NCBI GenBank assembly: GCA_965226885.1
Contig: CBDDEL010000016.1
Location: 800,001 to 864,000 of the forward strand
Direction of reading: 5' to 3'
Origin: Opitutales bacterium
GTDB lineage: Bacteria > Verrucomicrobiota > Verrucomicrobiia > Opitutales > UBA2987
DNA: 64,000 nucleotides
Positions 11,006-56,391 of this stretch are shown in pieces. How positions within the stretch are numbered: the first letter of the stretch is position 1; every line of letters begins with the position of its first letter. The translations under genes and the position numbers were made by a program. The notes below the pieces were generated by a model. The model saw nothing but the letters and a program-made list of their open reading frames with translations, was not told the origin of the DNA and did not search any database.

Positions 11006-11837
11006 CTAACCTTTGCTGGACGCGGTGTGCGTGTCGGTTGACTCAAAAATTTTGTCCGCGCTGGCGGCTACGAAACCGTTATAGAGATGGCCATCGGCAT
11101 CGGCGTAGCGGAGGGCAAACTCGTAGTAGCAAGTGGGAATCTCATGCACCTGGCCGCCGGCAAATTCCACCGGCATGCGGTCGGCCATTGACGACCCCTG
11201 CTCCAGTAATACCTGGGGCGATCCTTTGACCCGACCACCCGATTGATTGACCGGTATACCCTGCTCCTCCACCACTTGCAGCACACCTTCAACTGTCGGG
11301 GTTTTCTTCAGGTGGTTGACGGCGATCGTAAAATGGTTGGCATGCAACCCGTGGGCGGCAAACCAGGCGGCGTATTCACTTTCTTCAAGCAGTAAGCCAT
11401 AGTCATCCCATGAAATCGGATCCCACAAGCGGCCGGCCCAAAGAACTTCCGGTCCCTCCACCCGGATGGGGTCAATCTGAGTGCAAATACCTTGCAGAAT
11501 TACCTTGCAGAATTTTTTGCGCGTCCACGCTGAGGGTGGAACAATCAAGGGCGCTCAGAAAAATCCTGGGCTGGGAAGGGTCTGGATGCAAATAACCCCA
11601 GGCATTCAATTTTTTTTCTTTGAAAACATAGGGCGCCAGGGGCTCGTAGCCGAGGGCCAGGATATGCTTTTGCAGCACTGGCAGGCGAATCAGATCCAGA
11701 TCGAGGGTCCGAAATGCGACGTGATCGTTGAGGACTTGCTCGCCTCTGTTTTCAAAAACAGATTTAAGCCGGGCGGCGCGGGGGGCCATCCCGATGTAGT
11801 CCTCCCAGAGACTTTGGAAGAAGATTTGAGTATTCAT
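11006..11837 (-). pseudogene. DUF1338 protein (2-oxoadipate dioxygenase/decarboxylase, HglS-like), frameshifted by a 13-bp tandem duplication
   Basis: NDHVAFRT in the 5' ORF; ESEYAAW, ANHFT, LLEQGS, YYEFA.R in the 3' ORF; TACCTTGCAGAAT x2 at 11488-11513; removing one copy gives one 272-aa frame. Confidence 0.88.
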
Positions 11838-11854
11838 GTAGTAATTTCCGATAA

Positions 11855-12493
11855 TTAAATCGAGTATTCAACCCCTATGTTGCGAAATGTGGATGAATCC
11901 CCGAAGGCCGAAGAAATACGCCGCCAAGGGTAGCTATGGAGAATCCGCCCGGGGGGTGGTATTTTTCCCTTAAACAATTCCCGATAGATTTCATTTTGCG
12001 GGGACTCGATACGCTTCATATCGAATCCGGCCGTTTTTATGGTTGTAAATCCGTAACGATAACAGGCAGCTAGCAGGGGGTAGGAAAACTTTTTTTCTTC
12101 CTCTAACAACCGGCGGCAATGACCTAAATAGAGCGTCCCCGCCGAAATATTTTTCTTCCAGTCCCAGGCATTGGACCACGGCTCATCTGAAACAACATTC
12201 CAGGCCCCTTTGCTCATCTGCATGATTCCTCGGGCATAACCGGTGTCGGCGTATGCATTGAGAGAACTCTCCGCCCTTAAAATGGCAAATACGAATAGCG
12301 GATCGAGCTGGTTGTGAAGGGCTTCGGCTCTCGCCACTGGCCAAACCAGGGTTGCCGGCAAAAATTTCGGGGCCCTTCGACAGCGCACAAAAATCAGAGC
12401 CGTTATAAAAAACAGCGACAAAATAATAAGGATGCCGCATCTATTTCTCAGACATCCCCGAAAATTTCCGAGCCTACCCATTGTATTTACCAT
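11855..12493 (-). CDS. Lytic transglycosylase (SLT domain) membrane protein
   Basis: N-terminal TM helix; AILRAESS (catalytic Glu), ARGIMQM, NISAGTLYL, LAACYRYG. Confidence 0.8.
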   Translation of the reverse strand: MVNTMGRLGNFRGCLRNRCGILIILSLFFITALIFVRCRRAPKFLPATLVWPVARAEALHNQLDPLFVFAILRAESSLNAYADTGYARGIMQMSKGAWNVVSDEPWSNAWDWKKNISAGTLYLGHCRRLLEEEKKFSYPLLAACYRYGFTTIKTAGFDMKRIESPQNEIYRELFKGKIPPPGRILHSYPWRRISSAFGDSSTFRNIGVEYSI

Positions 12494-15400
12494 GTTCTCA
12501 TAAGGCCCATCTTCCTGTTTTGCAATCGGAGGAATTACGGGGAAAAACTCATCTCACCCCGGCGGCGAAGATTCGGAATTAATTTTTGGTTCCACTGGCC
12601 GACTTTCGTAGAGCTTCCCTAAAGTTTAATCCAGTCAGGAATTTTCCTGCTGAGGCAAAGCAATTGTATGTCCAATCCTGCAACATCAAGTGTCAGCATC
12701 TTCGGCACCGGCACAAGGCGCACGTCTTGGCCGCTGGCAGCCTGTGAGGATCATTCCCGATGAGCAAACCGGTCACTCAACAAAATATTGCCTTAAGCAA
12801 AGCCCATTTTCAGGTTGTGGAAGCGCTGCCCGGTATTGACGATATGAGCCGGTTCGCGGCTTACTGGCCGATGCTGCAACTTTGCCCTTTCCCCGCCTGG
12901 TTGTCCGATGAAAATGGCTGCCGGGTCTATTTCAATCAGGCATGGCTCGACCTGCGAGGCCAAACAGCGGATAGCGATTTAAACGACGGATGGGTAAATG
13001 GGATTCATCCCGATGATCTCGTGTCCTTGCTCAAGACCGATCTAAGAGCCCATGAAAAAGAGATTCCCTATGCTGCGGAGATACGTATCCATAATACTAA
13101 AGGCGATTATCGATGGATTTCAATCCCGGCATCACCCATCCAAGATTCCGACGGTTTGTTCATCGGCCTGACCGGTTTTTGCCTCGATATAACGAGCAGT
13201 AAGGAGACTGAGCAAGAACTGCTCATTAAGAAGAATCGCTACAAACTAGCCATTGAAAATACCGGGCTTGGCATTTGGGACTGGAATATCGCCACCGGTG
13301 AAATATACTTCAACCGCCGTTATGCCGAAATCCTCGGCTACGAGTACGACGAGATGGACAGGCAATTCCATTGCCTGGATCAATTCATTCACCCCGATGA
13401 CAAGGCGGAGGTATGGGAAAAACTCCAGCGGCATCTGGATGGCAAATCTCCCAGTTACGACTCGGAACATCGTCTCAAGACTAAATACGGCGATTGGGTC
13501 TGGATTCAGGACCGGGGCAAAGTGGTAGGCCGGGACGACAGCGGAAAACCCCTCCGCATGACGGGAACCCATCGCGACACCACCATGAGGAAGGAAATGG
13601 AAGAGTCCATGCAACGTCTCTCCCTGGTGGCCAGCCGTTCAAATACCGGCGTGGTCATTTCAAATGCGGATGGAGAGACCGAATGGGTCAATTTTGCCTT
13701 CGAGAAAATGTCAGGTTACGATCTTTACGATTTGGAGGGAAAAACAGCGGGAAACCTGTTACACGGCCCCGGCAGCGATCCCGAAGTCATCGCCTACATA
13801 GATCGATGCATAAAGGAGAAAAAAGAGTTTCATGCCGAAATTCTCAATTACCACAAAAGCGGCCAAACCTTTTGGGTGGACATAGACGCCACTCCCATTT
13901 TCGACAGAAGGGGTAAAGTTATACAGTTTATCGCCATCGAATCGGATATTACTTCCCGGAAAAAAGCCGAAGAAGAGATGAAAAAGGCGATTGAGGCAGC
14001 GGAGTCTGCCAACCAGGCAAAAAGCGATTTCCTGGCCAATATGAGCCACGAGATTCGCACTCCCATGAATGCCGTCATGGGCATGACCAGCCTGCTCATG
14101 GACACCGAGTTGACCGAGGATCAATTGGACTTCGCTCAGACCATCCAAAGCAGCAACGAGTCCCTTCTCAATATAATCAACGATATTCTGGATTTTTCCA
14201 AAATCGAATCCGGCAAACTGGACCTGGAGGACGTAGCCTTTAGCCTGACCTGCTGCGTCGAGGAGGCGATCGATCTATTCGGGTCGGCGGCCGCCGAGAA
14301 AGAACTGGAACTGCTCTGCCATATTGACGACAAAGCGCCGGAATACCTCATCGGCGATCCCACGCGATTGCGTCAAATTCTCATCAATTTATTGGGCAAT
14401 GCCATAAAATTTACCTCCCATGGAGAAATAGTAACCACCGTTACACTGGAAGAAATACAGAACGAAGACTATATTATACGGTTTTCCGTACGCGATACCG
14501 GAATCGGAATTCCCGAGCAGCGGCAAAGTATCATCTTCGAAGCCTTCACCCAGGTGGACGCCTCCACAACCCGTCAATACGGCGGATCAGGTCTGGGTTT
14601 GGTCATCTGCAAAAGGCTCAGCAATTTGATGGGGGGCGACATTGGCTCAGCAATTTGATGGGGGGCGACATTGGTTTAAAGAGTGAGGTAGGCAAAGGTA
14701 CCGAATTTTTCTTCACCGTGAAACTGAGCCCCGACAAATCGCCGCCCTCGCCTACTTTCCAGGCGGACTCGCTGTTTGGGAAACGAGCGCTGATCGTCGA
14801 TGACAACGCCACCAACCGGCAAATCCTTACTCTCCTCTTGAGCAAATGGGGTATCTACGCCGAAGAAGCCGAATCGGGTGTCGAAGCGATCGCCAAATTA
14901 GATCAAAGCGCGTCTTATGATGTGGCCATTCTGGACTGCCAAATGCCTCTCATGGACGGAATGGAACTAGCAGCCAAAATTCGCAAATCAAAATCTTACG
15001 GCAAGCTTCCTCTGATTATGCTTACCTCCATGACGCACCCCGATACGGAAAAACTACGCCAGAAACTGAATTTTTCCGCCTATTTGACCAAACCGGTTAA
15101 AAACCTCATATTATTGAATGCGTTGCGGCAAGCCCTGCAGGATTCTTCGACTCCAAATAGCTATAACGGTCGTGCCGGTTCACCTTTCCAAAACCTGCCT
15201 GCTTCGAAACAAAATTTCAGCCTGCTTTTAGCCGAGGATAGTCCGGTCAATCAAAAAGTCGCTCTTCTGCTGCTCAAACGCCTCGGCTACCGGGCTGATG
15301 TGGCCAATGACGGCGACGAGGTTTTGGACTTATTACAAAAAGTATCCTACGATGTTATCCTTATGGATGTGCAAATGCCCAATAAGGATGGCATTGAAAC

Positions 15401-16135
15401 CACGCGTATCCTTCGTCAAACTTTTTCTCAGGACCGCCAACCCTACATAGAGGCTGTCCCAAAAATATAAAGATTTTATAGTCAACTGGATGACGTTGAT
15501 AAAAAGAGCCGGAAAGAGCAAGTTTTTGCTCGATCCGGCCAAAAAAGGGTTCTATAATTGAGTTAGCGAAAATCAATATAGCCCTTTCTATGAAAAATAT
15601 AGCCATCCAATGCCTCCTGCGTCCAGCTTTAACTGTGGTCGACCGGTGCCTCGATTACGATAACTTCCGCGCCACCATTGATCGAATCGATCGGCTGCTG
15701 ATCGACTCGGAGGTGGAATCGCAGGCCATTGAGCTGGCCTTGGAGGGGTGGCCGCCAATGGGTCTAAAGGCCCGGCGGCAGCGGGCCAGTTTTGCCATCA
15801 AGGCACTGCGCATGGATACGCTGGGCCGTCTGCTCGGAGGGATTTCGTTTCGGCATTTGTCGCGGGCTCTGGGCAGCAGCGATCTGTTGGCCGACTTTTG
15901 CCGTGTCCGGCAGATCGATGGCATCAGGGGCATCTCCAAAAGCACCCTGGAGCGGGCCTCGAAGTTTTTCAGCGAAGAGCAGTTGAGGGCCTTGCACCGG
16001 ACCTTGACTGAGGTGGTGGGCGATGCCCTTCTGGCCCGGCAGGTGGGATTGGACAAGCCGATTGACACCACCATTTGCCTGATCGACGGCACCTGTTTGG
16101 AGGCTAACATTCATTGGCCGACGGACTGGGTATTA

Positions 16136-20958: not shown

Positions 20959-21591
20959 TCAAGCATCCAGTTTGCATCCAGTATCCGGCAACCTAAGCGC
21001 TTCCCAAAGCCCATGTTTTTGCAGTAATTCCGAAGTCTCCTCGACCGGCAGGCCCATCACGTTACTGAACGACCCTTCTAGATTTTCCAATATGATTTCC
21101 CTGCCCTCCTGAATACCGTAGGCCCCCGCCTTATCCAAAGGATCGACAATGCTCAAATAGCGGCTGATCCCCTCCTCGTCCAGTTGCCGGAAAGTGACTT
21201 CGCTGGTCACGCACAGAGTCTCGTCAATATTGCGCTCCCGAAATATCAGGCAAATACCGGTAAAAACCGTATGGGTGCGCCCGGAAAGCTGGCCCAACAT
21301 ACGCCGGGCATCCTCCAGATCGCCCGGCTTGTTCAAAATAACGCCATCCAAAGCCACCGTGGTATCCGCCCCCAGCACCGGGCAGTGGGCATGGGCTCCA
21401 TCCGCCACCACGAACTCGGTCTTCAAACGACAATTATGCAGCACCAGCGAACGCGGGTCGGCCCCCGCCTCAAACCATTCCTCCACCGCCGCCGGAACCA
21501 CCGCAAAGCGCAAACCCATCTCGTTGAGAAGATGCCGCCGCCGAGGCGAAGAAGAAGCCAACACCAATTGCAAATGTAAACGTGAATTCAT
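20959..21591 (-). CDS. maf: Maf-family nucleoside triphosphate pyrophosphatase
   Basis: LASSSPRRRHLL, GADTTV, KP, LSGRTH, DKAGAYGIQ, NVMGLP. Confidence 0.95.
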   Translation of the reverse strand: MNSRLHLQLVLASSSPRRRHLLNEMGLRFAVVPAAVEEWFEAGADPRSLVLHNCRLKTEFVVADGAHAHCPVLGADTTVALDGVILNKPGDLEDARRMLGQLSGRTHTVFTGICLIFRERNIDETLCVTSEVTFRQLDEEGISRYLSIVDPLDKAGAYGIQEGREIILENLEGSFSNVMGLPVEETSELLQKHGLWEALRLPDTGCKLDA

Positions 21592-21643
21592 CGAAATAAA
21601 ATCTCTCTAGTAAACGTGAATTCATCGAAATAAAATCTCTCTA
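21576..21643. repeat. Perfect 34-bp tandem duplication spanning the maf start codon
   Basis: GTAAACGTGAATTCATCGAAATAAAATCTCTCTA x2. Confidence 0.95.
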
Positions 21644-21986: not shown

Positions 21987-22666
21987 ATGAAAGATATTGC
22001 ATTAATAACGATACATGGTATGGGAAAAGTGGATCTAAATTATTTTTCAGATTTAGAGGACGGACTAAAAAATAGACTCGGCAGGGACTGGACAAGGATT
22101 TCTTTTCAAAATGTACAATACGCGCCGATACTACAAAAACCACAGAATCAATTATGGAGGGACATAATAAGAACGCCCGACAATGATATAGATGCTACAA
22201 AGTTAAGGCAGTTTTTTCTTTATGGTTTTGGTGATGCCGGCTCTCTTGAATACAGTGCCCATAATGACGAGGTGAAATACATTGAGGTACAGGAAAACAT
22301 ACAAAAAGCATTAAATAACGCATACTCGGAATTGGGTCGGGACAATTCAAAGTCTGTCGTGATTATCGCCCATTCACTTGGTTGCCAAGTGATTTCCAAT
22401 TATCTTTGGGATGCACAAAATAATAAGTATATATTTAAAAATACTGGTGGTAATGATTCTCCTGAATTAGATTTCCTTCGATTAAAATCCCTAATTAATT
22501 TGGTTACTACTGGCTGCAATATACCATTGTTCATTTCAGGTATAAGTGATCGCCAGTGTTTTAATAAACCGAATGATCAATTCAAATGGGACAATTGGGA
22601 CAATTATTATGATCCGGATGATGTCCTTGGATGGCCGTTGAGGCAGTTGAGTAACTCATTCAATAT
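21987..22666 (+). pseudogene. Low-GC alpha/beta-hydrolase-like hypothetical protein, 3'-truncated by IS3; in-frame 9-bp duplication (WDN-WDN)
   Basis: IHGMG, IIAHSLG nucleophile motif, YDPDDVLGWPL; frame runs into the IS3 IRL at 22667; TGGGACAAT x2 at 22587-22604. Confidence 0.75.
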
Positions 22667-25786: not shown

Positions 25787-25790
25787 CTAA

Positions 25791-36898: not shown

Positions 36899-37545
36899 GC
36901 AAAAAGGCCCCAGTCCTGCATAAAGATCTCCCAGTCCTGCATAAAGATCTTAAAGAGGTTTTTGTTGAGATTGTAAACATCGGTCTCGGTAAAGCGGCCG
37001 CCGCCCTATCGGATTTGACAGAACTTCCGGTCCAGATTTCGGCCCCCAGTCTGGAGGTTTTTGGTCCCGGCGCACTCGATCGGGTAAGCGAACTCGAATC
37101 CATCACTTCGATAAGGATCAGTCAGTCTTTTACCGGCCGGGATTTATCCGGGCATGGATTGCTCGTCCTCAACAAAAGCGGCGCCCTGCGCCTGGCGGTG
37201 CTGCTGATGGGGGAACCACGGGAACAGGAAGCTTTTGGAGGGATCGAGCAAATGGCTCTTCTGGAAACCGGCAATATTATGATCGGGAGCGTTGTTGGCA
37301 CTTTGGGCAACATGCTCAGCACGCTTATGCGATACGATTTGCCTCGTTTGCAGGTCAAGGGGACCAATGGCGCTATCGAACTGGTATCGGACATTATCCA
37401 TCCCAATATAACTTATATTCTGCTGGTGCGAGCCACCCTCTGCATAGGGGAAACAGAGGTAAGCGGCAACTTCATCCTCCTTTTCGAGAAACACAGTTAC
37501 AACACCCTTTGCCACCTTCTGGAGAATCATTTGATCCTCAAATGA
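36895..37545 (+). CDS. CheC-like phosphatase; in-frame 21-bp duplication near the N-terminus
   Basis: EIVNIGLGKAAAALS and LLETGNIM ExxN motifs; PVLHKDL-PVLHKDL; ATGA overlaps on both sides. Confidence 0.85.
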   Translation: MSKKAPVLHKDLPVLHKDLKEVFVEIVNIGLGKAAAALSDLTELPVQISAPSLEVFGPGALDRVSELESITSIRISQSFTGRDLSGHGLLVLNKSGALRLAVLLMGEPREQEAFGGIEQMALLETGNIMIGSVVGTLGNMLSTLMRYDLPRLQVKGTNGAIELVSDIIHPNITYILLVRATLCIGETEVSGNFILLFEKHSYNTLCHLLENHLILK

Positions 37546-39193
37546 AAAGCAATACCGAATTGGCAAGCATGGATTCGCTCCCCGTAGGGTTTTTTCAAAT
37601 CGACTGGGAAAACCGCATCATGGTGTGGAACCACTGGATGGAGATGCACACCGGCTACTCCAAAAAGGACGTCCTGGGATGCCGCCTGGAAGCCTTCTAC
37701 CCCGGCCAAAAAACCGTCTTTAGCATAATTGAGGAAGCGCGCCGGTGCGGCTGCCAGCCGGTTATTTTATCACAGCTTTTGCACTCTTATTTCCTTCCCA
37801 TCCAGCTAGGGGAAAATCACCTCAGTGGGTTTCAAATGATGCAGCAGGATTGCCATATCGTGCCCCAGGACGAGCCGGGCGGATCACTCGCCATCACCAT
37901 TCAAGATGTTACCTCGCATGTGATCGGCCGGCGGCGCATCAATAATTTGCATGTTGATTTGAAGGAAACCAGCGACGCGGCTTTGGAATCGGCAAAGGAA
38001 AAATCGGAAATCCTGGCCATGATGAGCCACGAAATACGCACCCCCATGAACGCCGTTATTGGATTTACGGACATTTTGCTGGAATCCTCTCTCGATCCCT
38101 TGCAGCTCGATTACGTTAAAATCATACAGCAAAGCGGCGCCAGGCTATTGCGCCTCCTCTCCGACATCCTCGATTTCTCCAAACTGGAAGCCAATCGCAT
38201 CGAACTGCATACACCCTTCATCGACCTGCGAGGTTGCATTGCAGAAGTATCCCGGATGGCTGAAAAGATGGCTTCCGATAAAGGATTGACCTATTCCTGG
38301 AAGGCCGCCTCGCCCCTTCCCTTGAAGGTAAAGGCAGACACCGGAAGACTCACCCAGGTCCTCCTCAATCTTCTCAGCAATAGCATCAAGCATCAAGTTC
38401 ACTGAAAACGGAACCGCTCAATTAATTGTAAAATCCAAGAAATTGGGAGCCGACTCGGTGGAATTACTTTTTTCTATCAGCGATAAGCGATACCGGCCCC
38501 GGCATACCGGCAAATCGAAGAAATCGGCTTTTCAAGCCCTTCAGCCAAGTCGATTCAAAGATTTGGGAACGCCACGGCGGCACCGGCCTGGGTCTGGCCA
38601 TTTCAAAAAAACTGGTCGAGTTGATGGGCGGTAAAATCTGGCTGGATGATGATTGCCAAACCGGAGCCACCTTCCACTTCACCCTCCCGGCGGGGATCCA
38701 GGAAGGAGATAGTTTTAACAGCGATATCAAAATAAACGGCTCCACCGGAAAGGAAGCGACGAAGGCACTCTCCATCCTACTGGTCGAAGATCACCCCCTC
38801 AATCGTAAACTGACTGCTGCTCAGTTGAAAAAGTTGGGACATAGCTCCAGTTTTGCCCAGGACGGGCGGGAATGCATCCAAGTACTCGCTCGTGAAAAAT
38901 TTGATCTCATCCTTATGGACCTGCAAATGCCCGTCATGGACGGCTACGAGGCTGCCAGCCGCATCCGCAACGGAGAAGCCGGTTCGTCCAGCCAGTGGTT
39001 GCCCATTATCGCCATATCGGCGAACGCCAGCAACCTCGCTCAGGAACGCTGCATGGAAGTCGGAATGAACGATTATTTTTCCAAACCAGTAACCATGAGC
39101 AACCTCAAGAAAGCACTCGAATATTGGACTACAAAAGCAAAGCAGGCCAATCCCCGCGAACTGGCGAAAGCGACAGCAAACAGGTTTCAATAG
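37542..39193 (+). pseudogene. PAS hybrid histidine kinase-receiver, broken by two 7-bp tandem duplications
   Basis: [17 protein letters not shown] x2 (38382-38395) and AGCGATA x2 (38479-38492); removing both restores NSIKFT...SDTGPGI...GGTGLGL in one frame. Confidence 0.92.
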
Positions 39194-39267: not shown

Positions 39268-41051
39268 GAGGCTGTCCCAAAAATATAAAGATTTTATAGT
39301 CAACTGGATGACGTTGATAAAAAGAGCCGGAAAGAGCAAGTTTTTGCTCGATCCGGCCAAAAAAGGGTTCTATAATTGAGTTAGCGAAAATCAATATAGC
39401 CCTTTCTATGTTCTATGAAAAATATAGCCATCCAATGCCTCCTGCGTCCAGCTTTAACTGTGGTCGACCGGTGCCTCGATTACGATAACTTCCGCGCCAC
39501 CATTGATCGAATCGATCGGCTGCTGATCGACTCGGAGGTGGAATCGCAGGCCATTGAGCTGGCCTTGGAGGGGTGGCCGCCAATGGGTCTAAAGGCCCGG
39601 CGGCAGCGGGCCAGTTTTGCCATCAAGGCACTGCGCATGGATACGCTGGGCCGTCTGCTCGGAGGGATTTCGTTTCGGCATTTGTCGCGGGCTCTGGGCA
39701 GCAGCGATCTGTTGGCCGACTTTTGCCGTGTCCGGCAGATCGATGGCATCAGGGGCATCTCCAAAAGCACCCTGGAGCGGGCCTCGAAGTTTTTCAGCGA
39801 AGAGCAGTTGAGGGCCTTGCACCGGACCTTGACTGAGGTGGTGGGCGATGCCCTTCTGGGCCGGCAGGTGGGCCGGCAGGTGGGATTGGACAAGCCGATT
39901 GACACCACCATTTGCCTGATCGACGGCACCTGTTTGGAGGCTAACATTCATTGGCCGACGGACTGGGTATTACTCAAGGATGTAGCCGGCACGTTGCTCA
40001 AAGCGATCCGGCTGATCCGCGAGAAGGCCGGTGTGCGCCATCGCATGCCGATCGAACCGGAGCCCTTGGCTCGGCAGATGAATCGGCTGTGCATACAGAT
40101 GACCCACAGCCGGCGGCGAAAAGACAGCGCGCGGCAGCGCAAGGGTATCTTGAGGCAGATGAAAAAGCTGCTCAAACGGATCGGGGAGCATGCCCGCAGT
40201 CACCGGGAATTATTGCAAGCCTGCTGGGAGCAAAGCGATTACAGCGAAAAACAGGTCCAACAGATCCTCGCCCGGATGGAGCGCATGAGCGAGCAAATCC
40301 CGGTGGTCATCAAACAGGCGCACGAGCGGATCATTGGCGGCCGCCAGGTGAAAAACGCAGAGAAAGTCTTGAGTGTTTACGAACTCGATGGGCAGGTGAT
40401 TGTGCGAGGTAAAGCGGGCCAAGAGGTCGAGTTCGGCAACACCCTGTTTTTGGGAGAAAGCGTTGAAGGGTACCTGCTGGACTGGAAACTCTACGGCAGC
40501 CGAACTCCAAGCGAAAATGAACAAATGCAAGAGAGTTTGCAAAGACAGAACCGCTTCAACCTGGAAGAACCCATAGCGGCCATGTGCGCGGACCGGGGAT
40601 TTGCCTCCCAGCGGGCCCGCCGGCAGTTAGCCCAGGAGGGAATCTACGACGCGCTCTGTCCACGCGATCCGAAGCAGTTGAAAAAACGGATGGAGGAACC
40701 ACTGTTCAGACAATTGCAAAAGCGCCGGGCCAGCACCGAAGGGCGGATCGGGGTATTGAAGAATCGCTGGCAGGCCGGGCGGTTGCGCAGCAAAGGCTTT
40801 GCCAACCGCTCGATCAGCGTAGCCTGGTCGGTACTCTCGCACAACCTATGGAAAGTAGCCAAGATGCTGGCCCAGCAAGACGAACTAAAAACCAAAGCGG
40901 CGGCCTAGAGAGCGGAAAAGCAAGGACAATACTTTTTCACAGCCGTACTGTCGGCTCATACAAAGAAAACCAGGCAACCGGACCCCAAAACCAGTATCCT
41001 AACGTCATAGGAGAGCAAAGTTGATACTCTCCCAAATGCAAATACCTCTAA
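39268..41051 (+). mobile_element. ISNCY/IS5-like element copy 2; right end lost at an IS1380 junction
   Basis: IRL after TAGGTA; stops at internal CTAA 41048-41051; private 7-bp and 12-bp duplications. Confidence 0.9.
39415..40908 (+). CDS. ISNCY/IS5-like DDE transposase (RQVG duplicated in frame)
   Basis: 497 aa, essentially identical to the other copies apart from a 4-aa duplication. Confidence 0.88.
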   Translation: MKNIAIQCLLRPALTVVDRCLDYDNFRATIDRIDRLLIDSEVESQAIELALEGWPPMGLKARRQRASFAIKALRMDTLGRLLGGISFRHLSRALGSSDLLADFCRVRQIDGIRGISKSTLERASKFFSEEQLRALHRTLTEVVGDALLGRQVGRQVGLDKPIDTTICLIDGTCLEANIHWPTDWVLLKDVAGTLLKAIRLIREKAGVRHRMPIEPEPLARQMNRLCIQMTHSRRRKDSARQRKGILRQMKKLLKRIGEHARSHRELLQACWEQSDYSEKQVQQILARMERMSEQIPVVIKQAHERIIGGRQVKNAEKVLSVYELDGQVIVRGKAGQEVEFGNTLFLGESVEGYLLDWKLYGSRTPSENEQMQESLQRQNRFNLEEPIAAMCADRGFASQRARRQLAQEGIYDALCPRDPKQLKKRMEEPLFRQLQKRRASTEGRIGVLKNRWQAGRLRSKGFANRSISVAWSVLSHNLWKVAKMLAQQDELKTKAAA

Positions 41052-45651: not shown

Positions 45652-47218
45652 CCCGGATATTTCGTAAAAAAAGTATCGTTGATATGCTTAACTGCTGATA
45701 TACAGCAGGATAGATCAATAATTAAAGCAATATCAGCGATGACAAAAGGTAAACAATTAAAGCTACAGTTGACAAGGGTAAAAGGCCGCCGTGTGCGGGT
45801 TGATTTCAAGGGCGGAGAGGTTACTTCGGATGCCGGACTGCTTTTGATCCGGGAAGTGGATCGGCAGTTGGGCTTGACCGAACGAGCGGCCCGACAGTTA
45901 GTGGACAAACGGCAGAAGGGCAAAGTACGCCATGAGGTATTGGGGATGCTGCGGCAGCGCGTTTACGGGCTGGTGGCGGGCTATGAGGATTTGAACGACT
46001 TTGATACCCTGCGCCACGATCCATTGTTGCAAACGGTAACGGGGCGCATTGAAACGTTGGCCAGCGCGCCGACTTTGTGTCGTTTTGAAAACGGGCAGGA
46101 TCGGCGGGCGGCCTTTGCGGTAAACGAGCTGTTGGTCGAACAGTTCATGGGCTCCTTTGCCGAGGAACCCGAAGAGATCATCCTGGACTTTGACGCCACC
46201 GACAATCCGGTGCACGGGCTCCAGGAGGGACGTTTTTTCCACGGTTATTATGATCATTACTGTTTTCTGCCGCTATATGTTTTTTGCGGTGATCAGCTGC
46301 TGGTGGCCTACCTGCGGCCGAGCAAGATCGATGCCAGCAAGCATGCCGGGGCCATCCTCAAATTGCTGGTTAAACGGATTCGCCAAAGCTGGCCCCGTAC
46401 GCGGATTATTTGGCGCGCCGACAGTGGATTTTGTCGAGACCGGATACTCTCTTGGTGCGACCGCAACGAAGTTAGTTACATCGTGGGGATGGCTCGCAAT
46501 GCACGCTTGCAGCAAGACGCCCAGCAGTTGCAAAAGCAGGCCAAAGAATGGTTCGAACTAAGGGGTAAAAAACAACGGTTATTCCAGGACTTCGTCTATG
46601 CTGCCGATTCGTGGCGATGGCTGCGGTTGGTCATCCATAAAGCCGAACACACCGCACAGGGGTCCAACCCGCGCTTCGTGGTGACGAACCTGCCGGGCGA
46701 TCCCCAGGAGCTTTACGACAAGGTATACTGTGGCCGCGGTGAAATGGAGAACCGCATCAAGGAACAGATGCAATTGTTCAGCGAGCGCACCAGCGCCCAT
46801 CAATGGTGGGCCAATCAGTGGCGATTGCTCTTGTCGGCGCTGGCCTACACCTTGATGGAAGCCATGCGCCGGTTAGCCTTAAAAGGGACGAAGTGGGCGC
46901 GGGCCCAATGGCACACCCTGCGGCTCAAATTAATCAAGATCGGAGCGGTCATCGTGCGCAACACCCGAACGATTCACTTTCACCTAAGTGAGAGTTATCC
47001 TTGGGCCAGTCTTTTCAACCATGCGGCCCGCCGATTGGTGCCAACCTAAAGGGTGCATTGGTGCTGCCCCCGGCACTACCGAACCAATGGGGGAAAGGGG
47101 GCAGTGTCTCTACACCCTGAAAAACACCTAAAAATCAAGACGATCTGCTCAAAATACAAAGAAATCCATCTCCAATAGCAATAACGAGCCAAACTTTACC
47201 CTTCATGAAATATCCGGG
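45652..47218 (+). mobile_element. IS1380-family element (1567 bp), complete
   Basis: IRs CCCGGATATTTC; CTAA on both sides. Confidence 0.95.
45679..47049 (+). CDS. IS1380-family transposase
   Basis: 456-aa ORF matching the other copies (likely start MTKGKQ). Confidence 0.93.
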   Translation: MICLTADIQQDRSIIKAISAMTKGKQLKLQLTRVKGRRVRVDFKGGEVTSDAGLLLIREVDRQLGLTERAARQLVDKRQKGKVRHEVLGMLRQRVYGLVAGYEDLNDFDTLRHDPLLQTVTGRIETLASAPTLCRFENGQDRRAAFAVNELLVEQFMGSFAEEPEEIILDFDATDNPVHGLQEGRFFHGYYDHYCFLPLYVFCGDQLLVAYLRPSKIDASKHAGAILKLLVKRIRQSWPRTRIIWRADSGFCRDRILSWCDRNEVSYIVGMARNARLQQDAQQLQKQAKEWFELRGKKQRLFQDFVYAADSWRWLRLVIHKAEHTAQGSNPRFVVTNLPGDPQELYDKVYCGRGEMENRIKEQMQLFSERTSAHQWWANQWRLLLSALAYTLMEAMRRLALKGTKWARAQWHTLRLKLIKIGAVIVRNTRTIHFHLSESYPWASLFNHAARRLVPT

Positions 47219-47564
47219 CTAAAGGGTGCATTGGTGCTGCCCCCGGCACTACCGAACCAATGGGGGAAAGGGGGCAGTGTCTCTACACCCTGAAAAACAC
47301 CTAAAAATCAAGACGATCTGCTCAAAATACAAAGAAATCCATCTCCAATAGCAATAACGAGCCAAACTTTACCCTTCATGAAATATCCGGGCTAAAGGGT
47401 GCATTGGTGCTGCCCCCGGCACTACCGAACCAATGGGGGAAAGGGGGCAGTGTCTCTACACCCTGAAAAACACCTAAAAATCAAGACGATCTGCTCAAAA
47501 TACAAAGAAATCCATCTCCAATAGCAATAACGAGCCAAACTTTACCCTTCATGAAATATCCGGG
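47046..47564 (+). repeat. Three perfect tandem copies of the 173-bp IS1380 3' tail (CTAA + 3' UTR + IRR)
   Basis: Units start at 47046, 47219 and 47392; each begins CTAAAGGGTGCATTGG and ends GAAATATCCGGG. Confidence 0.95.
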
Positions 47565-47571
47565 CTAGGTA

Positions 47572-49401
47572 GAGGCTGTCCCAAAAATATAAAGATTTTA
47601 TAGTCAACTGGATGACGTTGATAAAAAGAGCCGGAAAGAGCAAGTTTTTGCTCGATCCGGCCAAAAAAGGGTTCTATAATTGAGTTAGCGAAAATCAATA
47701 TAGCCCTTTCTATGAAAAATATAGCCATCCAATGCCTCCTGCGTCCAGCTTTAACTGTGGTCGACCGGTGCCTCGATTACGATAACTTCCGCGCCACCAT
47801 TGATCGAATCGATCGGCTGCTGATCGACTCGGAGGTGGAATCGCAGGCCATTGAGCTGGCCTTGGAGGGGTGGCCGCCAATGGGTCTAAAGGCCCGGCGG
47901 CAGCGGGCCAGTTTTGCCATCAAGGCACTGCGCATGGATACGCTGGGCCGTCTGCTCGGAGGGATTTCGTTTCGGCATTTGTCGCGGGCTCTGGGCAGCA
48001 GCGATCTGTTGGCCGACTTTTGCCGTGTCCGGCAGATCGATGGCATCAGGGGCATCTCCAAAAGCACCCTGGAGCGGGCCTCGAAGTTTTTCAGCGAAGA
48101 GCAGTTGAGGGCCTTGCACCGGACCTTGACTGAGGTGGTGGGCGATGCCCTTCTGGCCCGGCAGGTGGGATTGGACAAGCCGATTGACACCACCATTTGC
48201 CTGATCGACGGCACCTGTTTGGAGGCTAACATTCATTGGCCGACGGACTGGGTATTACTCAAGGATGTAGCCGGCACGTTGCTCAAAGCGATCCGGCTGA
48301 TCCGCGAGAAGGCCGGTTTGCGCCATCGCATGCCGATCGAACCGGAGCCCTTGGCTCGGCAGATGAATCGGCTGTGCATACAGATGACCCACAGAGATGA
48401 CCCACAGCCGGCGGCGAAAGGACAGCGCGCGGCAGCGCAAGGGTATCTTGAGGCAGATGAAAAAGCTGCTCAAACGGATCGGGGAGCATGCCCGCAGTCA
48501 CCGGGAATTATTGCAAGCCTGCTGGGAGCAAAGCGATTACAGCGAAAAACAGGTCCAACAGATCCTCGCCCGGATGGAGCGCATGAGCGAGCAAATCCCG
48601 GTGGTCATCAAACAGGCGCACGAGCGGATCATTGGCGGCCGGCAGGTGAAAAACGCAGAGAAAGTCTTGAGTGTTTACGAACTCGATGGGCAGGTGATTG
48701 TGCGAGGTAAAGCGGGCCAAGAGGTCGAGTTCGGCAACACCCTGTTTTTGGGAGAAAGCGTTGAAGGGTACCTGCTGGACTGGAAACTCTACGGCAGCCG
48801 AACTCCAAGCGAAAATGAACAAATGCTAGAGAGTTTGCAAAGACAGAACCGCTTCAACCTGGAAGAACCCATAGCGGCCATGTGCGCGGACCGGGGATTT
48901 GCCTCCCAGCGGGCCCGCCGGCAGTTAGCCCAGGAGGGAATCTACGACGCGCTCTGTCCACGCGATCCGAAGCAGTTGAAAAAACGGATGGAGGAACCAC
49001 TGTTCAGACAATTGCAAAAGCGCCGGGCCAGCACCGAAGGGCGGATCGGGGTATTGAAGAATCGCTGGCAGGCCGGGCGGTTGCGCAGCAAAGGCTTTGC
49101 CAACCGCTCGATCAGCGTAGCCTGGTCGGTACTCTCGCACAACCTATGGAAAGTAGCCAAGATGCTGGCCCAGCAAGACGAACTAAAAACCAAAGCGGCG
49201 GCCTAGAGAGCGGAAAAGCAAGGACAATACTTTTTCACAGCCTTACTGTCGGCTCATACAAAGAAAATCAGGCAACCGGACCCCAAAACCAGTATCCTAA
49301 CGTCATAGGAGAGCAAAGTTGATACTCTCCCAAATGCAAATACCTCTAAAATGAGCGCCTATCAAAAGCCCTCGCAAAAATCACCCTTTTGGGACAGCCT
49401 C
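47572..49401 (+). mobile_element. ISNCY/IS5-like element copy 3, TSD TAGGTA; transposase 47712-49206 frameshifted by a 13-bp duplication
   Basis: AGATGACCCACAG x2 at 48382-48407; 1830 bp = 1817+13. Confidence 0.93.
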
Positions 49402-49565: not shown

Positions 49566-52425
49566 ATGAAAACAAAACTCGGTAGTGTATAAAAAAAGAA
49601 TGTTATTTTGTATTTTTAGCTGTACAAATAGCGTTAGGCAGTTTATTCTTAGTGCATGGTTACTAAAATTATTAATTGTCGGCACTGTGGAAGTGAAAAT
49701 ATCATTAAATTTGGCAAGACGCCCAACCATAAACAGCGCTACCGCTGCCATGATTGTGGTAAACAAAGCCGCGAAACCCCACAGTGAAATACACCGAAGA
49801 GCAAAAAGAAATGATCCTTCGAGTCTATCAGGAACGCAGCAGTCTACGCGGTTTACAGCGCGCCTTCGGGGTGAGTCCCAACACCGTTTTGAGTTGGTTA
49901 AAAAAAACGACAATCGCTGCGACCGCTCAAAAGCACGATTCTTGCGGCCCGCCGCCATGATGTCATTGAACTGGACGAACTGTGGTCTTTTGTGGGGCGC
50001 AAGAGCGATGCCCAATGGGTTTGGATCGCTCTTTGCCGACGCACCCGTCAAATCCTCTCCTATGCCATTGGGCCTCGGGATTGGTATCGTTGCCGGGAAC
50101 TTTACGAGCGTCTGCCACGGGCCTACAAAAGATGTGCCACCTACAGCGACTTTTGGAGCACTTATGATGAAGTCTTTCCTCATAACCGATCCGTGGGAAA
50201 AGAAACCGGTGAAACGGCCCATGTGGAACGATGGAACAATACCCTGCGCCAACGACTGGGTCGTTTCACACGCAAAACCCTCTCCTTTTCCAAGCTTAAG
50301 AGTATGCATGAAACCTGTCTGAGACTTTTCATTCATCAATATAATCAAGAATTAGCCACCATTCCTACTTAATACACTACCCAAAACTCTACTACCTTAT
50401 AAGCCCTCTTGTTTTTGTATTATTCATTAACGGTAGTCTTACCGCTGAAGAAACCGATCCTTCTATTTTCAAAAATCTGGATGTCTTCGAAATCGAGCTA
50501 GCCGCTGATCCGCAGATTTCACCGGATGGCTCGCAGGTCGCATATGTTCGCAAATCGAATGACATTATGACGGACCGGGTCCGGTCGAATATCTGGGTCA
50601 TCAGCAGTGATGGCAAAAGCCATCGCCCCTTGTTGTCGGGCAAGAGCGACTATTCAAGTCCGCGGTGGTCGCCCAATGGGGATCGTATTGCGTATCTGTC
50701 GGGTACTGAGGGAGGGAGTCCGCAATTGTATGTCCGTTGGATGGATACGGGGCAAACCGCGCTCCTGAGTAATTTGCAAAAAGTGCCCAGCTCGATTACC
50801 TGGTCGCCCAACGGCAAGCAAATTGCATTTTCAATGCTCGTTCTAGCCGAGGAAACTATTTTGGCTAAACCTCCTGAGAAATCCGAAGGCGCCCAGTGGG
50901 CTCCACCAGTCAAGGTGATCGACAGACTATTCTATCGATCGGATGGCAAAGGATACTTGGAGGACGGCTACGACCACCTGTTTGTCATGCCGTCTGATGG
51001 AGGAACGCCCCAACAATTAACCACTGGCGGCTTCAACCATGAGGGTCCCTTATCCTGGTCTCCTGACGGGTCGACTCTCATCTTTTCAGCCAACCGGAAA
51101 GAGGATTGGGAACATGATTGGCGCGAATCCGAAATATGGTCCCTGCATATAGACAGCGGAGCGCTTTCAGCCTTGACCGACCGCAATGGACCAGACCGGG
51201 CCCCAACCTATTCGCCCGATGGATCGAAAATCGCGTATTTAGGATTCGACGACAGCGAAATGGAGTATGAAAACACCCGAGTCTATCTAATGAATGCCGA
51301 TGGCAGTGACAAACGTGTTTTGACGGATACATTGGATCGTTCCATTGAAGTGGTTCGTTGGTCGGGCAGTTCGAACCAATTGATGTTCCTCTACGACGAA
51401 CGAGGTAATAAGCGCCTCGCTTCACTATCCTTGCAAGGCCAAATGGAAACCCTGGCTGATGATGTCGGCGGGACTATTCATCGGGCGGCAGTTTTTCCGT
51501 CTCGGGCAACGGCGCCTACGCATATACCAGCACAACACTCTATCGGCCATCCGACGTCGCTGTGGGGCATCTAGGCAACGCGCCTCAAAAGCTCACCCGG
51601 CTGAATGAAGATTTCCTCGCCCACAAAACCTTGGGTCGGGTCGAAGAGTTGTCCTGGACCTCGTCTGTAGGGGATTACGAAATACAAGGATGGGTAATTA
51701 AGCCCCCGAATTTCGATCCCAACAAACAGTATCCGCTAATCCTGGAAATCCACGGCGGACCCCTGGCGGCTTACGGTCCCACCTTCTCTACGGAATTACA
51801 GCTATATGCCGCGGCAGGGTATGTGGTCTTGTATTGCAATCCCAGAGGCTCGACCAGCTACGGCTATGACTTCGCCAATGAAATTCATCACAACTACCCC
51901 AGCAAAGATTACGACGACTTGATGTCCGGAGTGAATGCAGTCATCGCCAATGGATATGTTGACGAGGATCATTTGTATGTAACGGGTGGTTCCGGCGGTG
52001 GTGTTTTGACGGCTTGGATCGTTGGCAAAACCGACCGCTTTCGTGCCGCTGTCAGCGCCAAGCCGGTCATCAATTGGACCAGTGAAATGTTAACAACCGA
52101 CATCATGGTTCACATAAAATACTGGTTCCCCAAAGCCCCTTGGGAAGCGCCGGAGTATTATTGGAAATACTCACCCTTATCCCTTGTAGGTAATGTATCA
52201 ACTCCCACCATGCTGATGGCAGGTGAGCAGGACCACCGCACACGAATTACTGAATCCGAGCAATACTATCAAGCGCTCAAGTTTCGCAAAATTGAAACCG
52301 CCTTGGTCCGCATTCCGGAAGCTTCGCACGGCATCGTCGCCCGGCCCTCCCACCTGATAGCCAAGGTCGACAATATTCTTGGCTGGTTCGAGAAATATAA
52401 GGAAAAAAAGGATACCGGGAAATAA
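49566..52425 (+). pseudogene. S9-family dipeptidyl aminopeptidase/acylaminoacyl peptidase; IS1 inserted after codon 5 and frameshifting deletion near 51475
   Basis: MKTKL|YYLISPLVF signal rejoined across IS1; WSPNG/WSPDG propeller repeats, IHGGP, GGSGGG nucleophile, DHRT, SHG. Confidence 0.9.
49581..50381 (+). mobile_element. IS1-family element (801 bp), 8-bp TSD CAAAACTC; insA appears frameshifted
   Basis: IRs GGTAGTGTAT/ATACACTACC; InsA zinc ribbon CRHCGS...YRCHDC, A8 slippery site 49900-49907, InsB ELDELWSFVG...SDFW...ERWNNTLRQ. Confidence 0.9.
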
Positions 52426-52486
52426 TAATCCAAAAGGCCAAACAAGACGGTCAAGAGAACGGTGCCCTAATTGCACTCAGCATCCA

Positions 52487-52535
52487 CCTATCTTGCACCT
52501 TGCATCCGGCATCCAGCATCTAGTATCTTGCATCC
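52487..52535 (+). repeat. Degenerate heptamer tandem repeat (NGCATCY x7) upstream of aroC
   Basis: CCTATCT TGCACCT TGCATCC GGCATCC AGCATCT AGTATCT TGCATCC. Confidence 0.7.
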
Positions 52536-52544
52536 AACAAAACC

Positions 52545-53639
52545 ATGGGCAACACTTTTGGAAAACTCTTCACCATCTCCACCTGGGGGGAAAGCCACGG
52601 TGGCGGCATCGGCGTGGTAATTGACGGCTGCCCGCCCGGCCTGCCCTTGAACGAGGAGGACATCCAGGTCGAGCTCGACCGCCGCCGGCCCGGCCAGAGC
52701 GACATCACCACCCAGCGCAAGGAGTCCGACACCGTCACCATCATCTCGGGAGTATTTGCAGGCAAAACCCTCGGCACCCCCATCGCCATGACCATTCCCA
52801 ACCGCGATGCCCGCCCAGAAGCCTACGCGGAGATGAAAGATAAATTTCGCCCCTCCCACGCCGATTTCACCTATCAGGCCAAATACGGCATCCGCGACCA
52901 CCAAGGCGGCGGCCGCTCCTCCGCCCGCGAAACCGCCGGGCGCGTCGCCGCCGGGGCCATCGCCCGCAAAATCCTCGCAATCTCGCACAAAATAGATATC
53001 GCCGCCTACGTCGAACGCGTCCACGACATCGCCATGCCACAGTTGGAAGGTCTACCCTCGCGCGAGGAGATCGACGCCAGCCCCGTGCGCTGCCCCCACC
53101 CCCCTACGGCGGAAAAAATGATCGCCCGCATCAAAGAAATACGGGCCCAGGGCGACTCCGTAGGCGGCCTCATCCTCTGCCGCGTGCGCAACCTCCCCGC
53201 CGGGCTGGGCGAACCCGTCTTCGACCGCCTAGAGGCCGACCTGGCCAAAGCCATGCTCTCCCTCCCCGCTGTCAAAGGCTTCGAAATCGGTAGCGGCTTC
53301 GCCGGAACCCATCAAACCGGCTCCCATCACAACGACATCTTCGAATCCCGCAACGGCCAAATCCGCACCCTCACCAACAACTCCGGCGGCGTCCAGGGCG
53401 GCATCTCCAACGGCGAAGAACTCTACTTCCGCATCGGCTTCAAACCCACCGCCACTATTCTAAGCAAACAAAAAACCGTCACCACCGAAGGCGAGGAAAC
53501 CGAACTCATCGGCCGCGGCCGCCACGACCCCTGCGTCGTCCCCCGGGCCGTCCCCATAGTAGAAGCCATGACCGCCCTAGTCCTCATCGACCACACACTC
53601 CGCCACCACGCCCAAAACAAATCCTTCCGCTTCGATTAA
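52545..53639 (+). CDS. aroC: Chorismate synthase
   Basis: [36 protein letters not shown]. Confidence 0.97.
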
Positions 53640-54560
53640 AGAAACAGAATTTAATCGATGGGCAGGCCGGGCGGAATGCTGAATAAACTCCCGTCCTCTA
53701 TTTGCTGGAAAAACCGCCTCCCTGGCTTGTTGTCCCCAAAAGTCCAAATCCAGCCGGAATTTCCCCCAAAAAGAAAAACCCAACGGTAAGCGTCTTCGTT
53801 AAGAAAAATCCATTCGCCCAAGCCCAAATCCCAAAGAAAAATAACCTCTTCAGTGCTATTCTGGGAAACAAATTGCCAGCCATGTTCATCATGGAAAATC
53901 CACGGCCAGAATTCTATATTGTAGTTGAGATACCATGGGGAAGCAAGCCATCCAGGGAATCCATCTATGGGGATTCCTCCAAATGGGGCGGCAATAGTCA
54001 ATTCCAATGCTCTTCGCGCATTTAACATTCCACCAGTTTTCACTTTGCCTTGAAGAGAATCGAGAGGAGTTACCGAATCCAAAAGTATTTGCCGCACCTG
54101 TGCCAACGTCAAATCCGGCCTCTGCGACCAAATAAGCGCGGCAACTCCGCTAACCATAGGCGCAGGCGCAGAGAATGAAGTCCCGTTACCAAGCCGGAAT
54201 TGGACTCCTTCTGTCTGAAATAGCTCTACACTCGATATTTCAACATTATCGATGTATACTCCATCTGCCTCTATCGATTCATCTGTTTCTAATCTAAATC
54301 GTAAATAAATTTGTTCGCCTTCATATGATGAGAGATCGATAGAAACGATCTCTGGAGTAGGTGGGGATAATATTTCTCCTTCACCAGAGCGAGACTTCTC
54401 AATATTCCACTCGATTTCGTCAGTGGAAACTTCAATGCGTAAGAAATCAAAATCTAATTCAAGTTGATAGAAAGTTTGAAATCTTAGTTGTGGTCCAATG
54501 TACCCAGATAGATCAATCCGAGGGCTTTTTAGATAGTTATTTGTGAATGGTTCATAATTA

Positions 54561-56391
54561 GAGGCTGTCCCAAAAATATAAAGATTTTATAGTCAACTGG
54601 ATGACGTTGATAAAAAGAGCCGGAAAGAGCAAGTTTTTGCTCGATCCGGCCAAAAAAGGGTTCTATAAAAAGGGTTCTATAATTGAGTTAGCGAAAATCA
54701 ATATAGCCCTTTCTATGAAAAATATAGCCATCCAATGCCTCCTGCGTCCAGCTTTAACTGTGGTCGACCGGTGCCTCGATTACGATAACTTCCGCGCCAC
54801 CATTGATCGAATCGATCGGCTGCTGATCGACTCGGAGGTGGAATCGCAGGCCATTGAGCTGGCCTTGGAGGGGTGGCCGCCAATGGGTCTAAAGGCCCGG
54901 CGGCAGCGGGCCAGTTTTGCCATCAAGGCACTGCGCATGGATACGCTGGGCCGTCTGCTCGGAGGGATCTCGTTTCGGCATTTGTCGCGGGCTCTGGGCA
55001 GCAGCGATCTGTTGGCCGACTTTTGCCGTGTCCGGCAGATCGATGGCATCAGGGGCATCTCCAAAAGCACCCTGGAGCGGGCCTCGAAGTTTTTCAGCGA
55101 AGAGCAGTTGAGGGCCTTGCACCGGACCTTGACTGAGGTGGTGGGCGATGCCCTTCTGGCCCGGCAGGTGGGATTGGACAAGCCGATTGACACCACCATT
55201 TGCCTGATCGACGGCACCTGTTTGGAGGCTAACATTCATTGGCCGACGGACTGGGTATTACTCAAGGATGTAGCCGGCACGTTGCTCAAAGCGATCCGGC
55301 TGATCCGCGAGAAGGCCGGTTTGCGCCATCGCATGCCGATCGAACCGGAGCCCTTGGCTCGGCAGATGAATCGGCTGTGCATACAGATGACCCACAGCCG
55401 GCGGCGAAAGGACAGCGCGCGGCAGCGCAAGGGTATCTTGAGGCAGATGAAAAAGCTGCTCAAACGGATCGGGGAGCATGCCCGCAGTCACCGGGAATTA
55501 TTGCAAGCCTGCTGGGAGCAAAGCGATTACAGCGAAAAACAGGTCCAACAGATCCTCGCCCGGATGGAGCGCATGAGCGAGCAAATCCCGGTGGTCATCA
55601 AACAGGCGCACGAGCGGATCATTGGCGGCCGCCAGGTGAAAAACGCAGAGAAAGTCTTGAGTGTTTACGAACTCGATGGGCAGGTGATTGTGCGAGGTAA
55701 AGCGGGCCAAGAGGTCGAGTTCGGCAACACCCTGTTTTTGGGAGAAAGCGTTGAAGGGTACCTGCTGGACTGGAAACTCTACGGCAGCCGAACTCCAAGC
55801 GAAAATGAACAAATGCAAGAGAGTTTGCAAAGACAGAACCGCTTCAACCTGGAAGAACCCATAGCGGCCATGTGCGCGGACCGGGGATTTGCCTCCCAGC
55901 GGGCCCGCCGGCAGTTAGCCCAGGAGGGAATCTACGACGCGCTCTGTCCACGCGATCCGAAGCAGTTGAAAAAACGGATGGAGGAACCACTGTTCAGACA
56001 ATTGCAAAAGCGCCGGGCCAGCACCGAAGGGCGGATCGGGGTATTGAAGAATCGCTGGCAGGCCGGGCGGTTGCGCAGCAAAGGCTTTGCCAACCGCTCG
56101 ATCAGCGTAGCCTGGTCGGTACTCTCGCACAACCTATGGAAAGTAGCCAAGATGCTGGCCCAGCAAGACGAACTAAAAACCAAAGCGGCGGCCTAGAGAG
56201 CGGAAAAGCAAGGACAATACTTTTTCACAGCCTTACTGTCGGCTCATACAAAGAAAATCAGGCAACCGGACCCCAAAACCAGTATCCTAACGTCATAGGA
56301 GAGCAAAGTTGATACTCTCCCAAATGCAAATAACTCTAAAATGAGCGCCTATCAATAGCCCTCGCAGAAATCACCCTTTTGGGACAGCCTC
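54561..56391 (+). mobile_element. ISNCY/IS5-like element copy 4, TSD TAATTA; private 14-bp duplication in the 5' UTR
   Basis: 1831 bp = 1817+14; AAAAAGGGTTCTAT x2 near 54653-54680. Confidence 0.93.
54715..56196 (+). CDS. ISNCY/IS5-like DDE transposase (493 aa, apparently intact)
   Basis: Same start (MKNIAIQ) as the other copies. Confidence 0.9.
   Translation: MKNIAIQCLLRPALTVVDRCLDYDNFRATIDRIDRLLIDSEVESQAIELALEGWPPMGLKARRQRASFAIKALRMDTLGRLLGGISFRHLSRALGSSDLLADFCRVRQIDGIRGISKSTLERASKFFSEEQLRALHRTLTEVVGDALLARQVGLDKPIDTTICLIDGTCLEANIHWPTDWVLLKDVAGTLLKAIRLIREKAGLRHRMPIEPEPLARQMNRLCIQMTHSRRRKDSARQRKGILRQMKKLLKRIGEHARSHRELLQACWEQSDYSEKQVQQILARMERMSEQIPVVIKQAHERIIGGRQVKNAEKVLSVYELDGQVIVRGKAGQEVEFGNTLFLGESVEGYLLDWKLYGSRTPSENEQMQESLQRQNRFNLEEPIAAMCADRGFASQRARRQLAQEGIYDALCPRDPKQLKKRMEEPLFRQLQKRRASTEGRIGVLKNRWQAGRLRSKGFANRSISVAWSVLSHNLWKVAKMLAQQDELKTKAAA

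Follow-up and report, generated by a model that had tools for sequence, protein, structure and literature searches.

The genome of an Opitutales bacterium (assembly GCA_965226885.1, here G000; 5.48 Mb in 17 contigs) is full of short tandem duplications formed without pre-existing repeats, and we propose that they are probably mis-religation products of TopB, the only type IA topoisomerase of the cell. The window analysed here is a 64,000-nucleotide stretch of contig CBDDEL010000016.1 (positions 800,001 to 864,000), in which a first-pass annotation had listed twelve such duplications and ascribed them to a distinct process other than replication slippage. A scan of the whole genome bears this out, with 602 exact duplications of 10-60 bp units found against ~3 expected and a density of 7-15 per 100 kb on each large contig; the order-5 Markov control behind this expectation predicted ~3 duplications of 10 bp and yielded zero longer ones. 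Their number drops smoothly with length (median 15 bp among those of 10-45 bp). Among 577 two-copy cases, extra junction homology of 0, 1, 2 and 3 bp was found in 323, 142, 68 and 20, in agreement with the chance prediction of 56, 28, 11 and 4%, and homology of at least 5 bp in 18. The class is thus far above background and lacks the long junction homology typical of slippage. Units of 5-7 bp are chiefly chance, although the motif score described below climbs from 6 bp upward. For comparison we used four congeners, G001-G004 (G004 is the sister genome, with 86% DNA identity to G000; G002 and G003 were sampled thinly, at 116 kb and 18 kb), and the other genomes G005, G006, G008, G019 and G031.

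The duplication junctions carry a motif that lies on one strand. When the flanks are pooled they look palindromic: C stands at -5, A or T at -4 to -2, and G at +4. Since G(+4) is complementary to a C placed five bases ahead of the unit's 3' end, both marks could lie on one strand, and the pattern of correlations expected from such an arrangement was predicted before the test. In a set of 289 zero-homology duplications of 10-45 bp, C(-5) was present on at least one outer flank in 230 (0.80, against 0.40±0.03 at nearby shifted positions), and among offsets -1 to -8 C was enriched solely at -5. The outer-flank C(-5) marks of opposite strands were anti-correlated (odds ratio (OR) 0.30, p=1e-6; 44 duplications with both, 91 and 95 with a single one, n=289), and start and end marks on the same strand were correlated (OR 1.66, p=0.049, and OR 2.68, p=7e-5). 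In five-fold cross-validation, the held-out log-likelihood was 357 for a one-strand two-site model, 282 for a two-strand model and 275 for a one-strand one-site model. The fitted start site, in per cent, reads T45(-8) T42(-7) C71(-5) A48/T36(-4) A52/T27(-3) T48/A31(-2). At -5, the start site has C71/G12/T10/A4% and the end site C48/G28/A12/T10%; the A/T patch was present at the start site alone. With respect to replication, 136 vs 175 duplications pointed towards the C-rich strand (p=0.03), falling to 20 vs 22 at high skew; as the GC skew of G000 is scrambled and the bias is lost where skew is high, this supports no conclusion.

This strand asymmetry bears directly on the origin that the first-pass annotation had favoured, namely staggered nicks on both strands that are filled and ligated, whether through abortive transposase transfer, excision footprints of insertion sequences (IS) or end joining. 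Some features fit such an origin: IS DNA makes up ~30% of the genome (1.62 of 5.48 Mb masked, with some 850 full copies in 11 families), both duplication-rich genomes, G000 and G004, are IS-rich, and zero homology is what fill-in would give. Nevertheless, we consider it very unlikely, because opposite-strand marks avoid each other, which argues against the staggered-nick, IS-footprint and end-joining versions alike, and because the two-strand model loses to the one-strand model. Moreover, Ku was not found in any of five genomes and no Cas1 was found in G000. Target duplications in the 11 IS families examined are fixed, at most 8 bp long and associated with other motifs, whereas the lengths of the tandem duplications decay smoothly. 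The target duplications measure 8 bp in IS1-like elements, 4 bp in IS1380, 6-7 bp in a 1.82-kb DDE element, 3-4 bp in IS3, mostly 6 bp in IS21, 1-2 bp in IS630 and 5 bp in one unassigned element. The annotation had put the IS21 target duplication at 7 bp, matching three of its duplications; it is in fact 6 bp in 27/65 full copies and 7 bp in 3. None of the nine IS target logos drawn resembles the duplication flanks, and 8-mer duplications lack the IS1 target motif. A search of G000 for elements with a long direct repeat and inverted ends returned nothing but three isolated instances, with repeats of 29, 66 and 173 bp, each of them at a known IS. An origin as IS footprints or target-site duplications was rejected, as no resident family matches in length or motif.

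An exact scan located all twelve duplications of the first-pass annotation at the places given, and the low junction homology that it had reported (0-2 bp) holds for eleven, the exception being 39857 with 4 bp. Motif C occurs on the outer flank, in some register, in 11 of the twelve, and 39404 is the sole one without C(-5). The features are as follows, in window coordinates and with strand calls where made.

11488..11514, plus strand (high confidence): 13-bp duplication that frameshifts the HGLS (DUF1338) gene.
14615..14674, strand not called (plus slightly favoured): 29-bp duplication that frameshifts the hybrid histidine kinase HK1.
21576..21643, plus strand (near certain): 34-bp duplication spanning the maf start codon, with zero junction homology and the flank GCAAAT.
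22587..22605, plus strand (high confidence): 9-bp in-frame duplication in an open reading frame (ORF) without Pfam match, spanned gap-free by a contig of short-read run X1.
36909..36950, minus strand (effectively certain): 21-bp in-frame duplication in a CheC/CheX-like gene.
38382..38397, plus strand (confident): 7-bp duplication, the first in the histidine kinase HK2.
38479..38492, plus strand (effectively certain): 7-bp duplication, the second in HK2.
39404..39417, strand not called: 7-bp duplication at the left end of a copy of the 1.82-kb DDE element.
39857..39884, strand not called (minus favoured): 12-bp duplication, in frame, within the transposase gene of a 1.82-kb element copy.
48382..48407, strand not called: 13-bp duplication that frameshifts a transposase copy and is absent from the modal element.
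54158..54171, strand not called: 6-bp in-frame duplication (an extra Ala-Pro) in a subtilase fragment, directly after what we take to be the catalytic-Ser motif.
54653..54682, minus strand (fairly confident): 14-bp duplication at the left end of a copy of the 1.82-kb element.
380..2953, plus strand: mutS, 857 amino acids (aa), with five of five Pfam domains.

With units of 9-34 bp, 9 duplications occur in the window where ~0.3 would be expected, a value scaled from the Markov control. For 6- and 7-mers, the counts of 29 and 7 against ~14 and 4 expected are not beyond chance, and the short duplications listed above stand on frame or sister-copy evidence, not on counts; one unlisted 7-mer duplication, at 7262, also occurs in relatives. 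Removal of one unit had been said to restore the conserved frame or motif wherever this could be tried. This is true at 11488 (stop-free frame extended from 182 to 282 aa), 14615 (636 to 897 aa), 48382 (361 to 522 aa), 39404 (502 to 526 aa) and in HK2 once both 7-mers are removed (470 to 728 aa), but the frame is unchanged at 22587, 36909, 39857, 54158 and 21576, where the maf frame stays the same and the start codon region is doubled. Two of the sites are hotspots with one end in common among their alleles, of 6, 7, 9, 11 and 14 bp at 39404 and of 9, 13 and 14 bp at 54653. As the annotation had stated, MutS is intact, with all domains in place.

For units of at least 9 bp, the duplications are biological and not an assembly artefact. 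Short-read evidence came from Logan contigs of four runs, X1, X3 and X4 from two studies and X5 from a third; the assembly may derive from the sample of X1. At 11488, contigs of the first three runs read through the duplication gap-free and carry the duplicated allele. The X5 strain lacks the 13-bp unit at 11488 and the 29-bp unit at 14615 and has a private 24-bp insertion behind 12503, a copy of neighbouring window sequence; the four contig pieces listed there carry 15 substitutions. Orthologous congener DNA has a single unit at 11488 (G002, G003) and at 14615 (G003, G004), the two sites at which this comparison was usable, most other listed sites having no usable orthologue. Intact-looking coding frames hold 122/511 duplications (9-45 bp, outside IS) as opposed to 814/1500 random sites, and 67 of these 122 have in-frame units; this depletion and in-frame enrichment indicate that selection has acted on the duplications. 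Ordinary slippage or an assembly artefact is therefore scarcely credible as a general explanation. A slippage contribution could be sought in the 18 two-copy cases with longer homology and among the 5- to 7-mers, most of which are chance, and many indels of 1-2 bp may be assembly errors. However, homology is at chance level overall, and independent contigs carry the alleles while another strain has its own.

The numerous IS copies serve as reporters of the process, not as its source. Relative to the modal copy, singleton differences comprised 512 substitutions, 48 exact duplications of at least 5 bp, 16 duplication-like insertions and 15 deletions of at least 5 bp, with 1120 bases gained vs 354 lost. 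This amounts to ~one duplication per 8-11 substitutions; wild-type E. coli lines had zero duplications among 13 mutations, a small control. Deletions in IS copies had a median homology of 4 bp, with none in 2/21, and duplications had no homology in 38/71. Furthermore, 37/116 IS alleles share one end with an allele of another length, where a uniform null gives 10 (maximum 24). The top ladder, at position 1532 of IS1380, has units of 6, 7, 9, 10, 11 and 14 bp, each starting after GCAATA; others begin after TCAATA or TCAATT, on either strand. After overlapping groups were merged, 4/5 distinct ladders with at least three lengths were anchored at a CAATW start site, although the motif model was trained partly on these IS ladder alleles. 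If a single nick were followed by extension of variable length, ladders of this kind, with the start fixed and the end variable, would be expected.

The candidate enzyme is encoded close to the window.

G000:C16:753075-755567, ~44 kb before the window: topB, encoding topoisomerase III.

This is the single type IA gene in G000. Its product scores above the TopB cut-offs (PRK08173, 1072 vs 1058 bits; TIGR01056, 586 vs 516) and below that of the TopA model, and its best match in the PDB is E. coli Topo III (E 3e-86). Aligned in it are the catalytic Y328, the TOPRIM motifs EKPS and DAGRE, R176 (equivalent to E. coli R178) and W61. TopA was found at its cut-off in 0/31 genomes of the order; in 30/31 there is just one type IA gene, which resembled TopB wherever it was examined. 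In published work, TopA is reported to prefer a C four bases upstream of the cut, within A/T-rich surroundings (PMC9352719, PMC7587558). The reported preference is for C at -5 in human TOP3 and bacterial Topo III (bioRxiv 10.64898/2026.03.13.711646) and for C at -5 and T at -2 in TOP3B (PMC9363430). E. coli Topo III is described as reading base -5 through R178, with G, C and T accepted and A disfavoured, and as able to bind five 3'-terminal bases alone (PMC13476441). Judged at the level of sequence, the junction motif matches this topoisomerase III preference (C-5, A avoided, T-2). The Topo III studies agree with our junctions in placing the site on one strand, five bases 3' of a C (or a G), with T(-2) and with A avoided; as far as their accessible parts go, they map cuts or structures with no tie to duplications, whereas our evidence consists of duplication junctions.

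We propose that TopB would cut a single strand within an A/T-rich patch, at a point five bases 3' of a C, and hold the 5' end covalently. The 3'-OH end would then leave the binding groove and be lengthened by a polymerase, the addition ranging from a few to ~40 bases, while the strand bound to TopB is displaced. The longer 3' end would be captured by TopB, with C(-5) preferred again but more weakly, and sealed; the resulting loop would evade MutS/MutL, and replication would fix one extra copy. Loops of such size are established to escape MutS/MutL. This nick-extend-religate model accounts for the excess of gain over loss, the lack of homology, the unequal marks on one strand and the ladders. 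As the Pol I polymerase domain was not found in the genus, the extending polymerase could not be Pol I; DnaE and two Y-family polymerases are present in G000.

We see an even chance for the broader statement that a natural lineage, through its sole type IA enzyme, writes tandem duplications by nicking, 3' extension and mis-religation at ~one per ten point mutations. If true, the usual deletion bias would be reversed in this lineage, and the origin of repeat-free tandem duplications in bacteria would, with the junction motif, have its first evidence at the level of sequence; the motif would also be a readable mutational signature for other TopB-only bacteria and for eukaryotic TOP3 mutants. Some 500 natural events point to one candidate enzyme and show length ladders with a fixed start and a motif specific to one strand, which would make a direct topoisomerase mechanism testable. 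A literature search, mostly of non-subscription papers, found no report of a natural topoisomerase-marked duplication signature.

TopB could also act without any synthesis, by cutting both sister strands at nearby sites and swapping the ends. Such an exchange would place C(-5) at both ends on the same strand, and with one GyrA/ParC-type gene in G000, TopB probably acts on sister intertwines. We regard it as quite unlikely, though: the start and end sites differ (C in 71% vs 48%, with the A/T patch at the start only), ladders keep the start and vary the end, and the equal number of blunt deletions that it predicts is not seen, since deletions of at least 5 bp are fewer (15 vs 48-64 singletons) and only 2/21 lack homology.

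A one-strand process independent of topoisomerase is an unlikely alternative, in which an uncut 5' flap from Okazaki or gap processing without a Pol I polymerase is sealed, or a Y1 (HUH, RAYT-like) protein nicks and rejoins. Both would be one-stranded, the first had also been suggested in the first-pass annotation, and the gene inventory offers them some ground: in G000-G002 and G004 the 5'-3' exonuclease occurs only as a stand-alone protein of 317-324 aa, the Pol A domain was found in 0/5 genomes of the genus, and G000 has one Y1 protein of 370 aa. In addition, xseA, for the large subunit of exonuclease VII (G000:C11:253527-256392), is broken in G000, being split by an IS1380 copy and carrying a 1-bp deletion, and is intact in G001-G004. 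Open frames in G000 include recJ, mutL, uvrD, recQ, dnaE, those of the two Y-family polymerases, xseB and gyrA. However, the duplication-poor G001 and G002 have the same inventory, the G000 exonuclease has no conspicuous change in a four-way alignment, and G004 keeps an intact xseA yet has the signature. A primase start would be expected at -9 to -12, a stretch in which the duplication flanks gave no signal. Flap duplications in yeast require short direct repeats and Y1 enzymes require exact sites of 2-5 bases; neither process accounts for C(-5) at both ends with A avoided. As to the distribution of these genes, a search of 31 Opitutales genomes found a Pol A domain in 11, of which only 4 gave a strong match over the full length, and G004 has 55 copies of an IS200-type Y1 transposase vs one longer Y1 protein each in G000, G001 and G002.

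The closest known system is the E. coli TopA R168C mutator (Bachar et al., PMC6954433), which produces repeat-independent head-to-tail duplications of 2-36 bp with hotspots; its authors report no motif and attribute the rise of tandemly repeated DNA out of non-repeating sequence to an unknown mechanism. As far as described there, it has in common with G000 de novo, repeat-independent duplications of a few to tens of bases and an implicated type IA enzyme. It is a laboratory TopA mutant, whereas G000 is a natural lineage that has only TopB, keeps the invariant Arg and shows one-strand C(-5) at both ends. The G000 process works like this mutator without being a member of it. Homology-free duplications also arise from strand breaks, as in the paired-nick tandem duplications of plants and nickase experiments and the 2-5 bp duplications of TOP2A mutants. 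Those need two-strand breaks and end joining, in contrast to the one-strand marks here and the absence of a Ku match. IS1549 and IS1634 generate long target duplications of variable length without homology. Although such direct repeats are likewise variable, the G000 assembly has no element of this type and its duplications have no insert.

The signature recurs in G004, where 1.2 Mb of sequence contain 63 duplications that fit the G000 motif model (0.58 vs null -1.57±0.27, n=36, z ~8). G001 has 6 duplications in 600 kb, without the motif, and G002 has 2 in 116 kb; G005, G006, G008 and G019 have 0-2 in 80-160 kb. In the TopB of G000 and G004, Arg325 lies three residues before the catalytic Tyr328, a position at which 117 outgroup homologues have M, V, L, A or F and 0/117 have Arg. 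A pattern scan of 185,579 genomes gave 5 matches (3 not TopB, the G004 gene and an unrelated TopB in G031), and a scan of metagenomes gave 3, none of them TopB; the scan demands the exact surrounding motif and carriers can be missed. Arg325 as a sufficient cause of a high duplication load was ruled out by G031, a duplication-poor carrier. Because G000 and G004 are both laden with IS, a raised duplication rate and relaxed selection are confounded.

Several observations weigh against a TopB origin. The cleavage preference that we ascribe to the G000 enzyme is borrowed from homologues, via secondary statements, and the accessible part of the E. coli Topo III paper calls that enzyme's preference weak (PMC13476441). 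The junction motif is itself short and degenerate. The active site of the G000 enzyme is intact (R163, the equivalent of TopA R168, R176 and Y328), and R163 is kept in all four congeners. G001 and G002, with the same TopB-only, Pol I-less set-up, are duplication-poor, and G031 has 1 duplication of at least 10 bp in 400 kb. In G004, the opposite-strand anti-correlation was not seen (OR 2.0, p=0.47, n=36). The ladder count exceeds a local-jitter null of 29.5 with p=0.043 only, and the ladder at position 143 of the 1.82-kb element has no start-site C. Transcription-strand bias was absent, whether duplications were assigned by a strict classifier (12 vs 13) or by an improved one (48 vs 41). Finally, among 26 E. 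coli R168C duplications, C(-4) occurred in 18 vs 14.8 expected (p=0.13); this re-test dropped one mismatched tdk row and one R35P row and did not include 4 short clone-3 rows and 6 mutation-accumulation insertions. The R168C mutant may have lost cleavage specificity.

The suggestion that these duplications provide a poorly described route to pseudogenisation stands in part: the route is real yet minor. Of 713 ORFs, 456 G004 genes had full-length G000 orthologues, and 129 were broken. The lesions, of which a gene can have several, were 72 indels of 1-2 bp, some of which may be errors of assembly, 42 stops, 20 IS, 18 other insertions, 14 deletions and 11 exact duplications. Exact duplications thus frameshift 11/129 broken orthologues, or up to 29 if the other insertions are eroded duplications.

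Other features of the genome involve IS. Their recent expansion in G000 is extreme, and the target repeats of many copies do not match, as IS-mediated rearrangement would leave them. At 47046-47567 of the window, the terminal 173 bp of IS1380 are present in three identical copies, one of six such arrays genome-wide. Because the 173-bp unit begins at an internal CTAA, the target type of IS1380 itself, these arrays are probably the product of self-insertion plus recombination and not of the short-duplication process. The subtilase gene is split by stacked IS copies into pieces at 53651-54230 and 62092-62964, ~8 kb apart.

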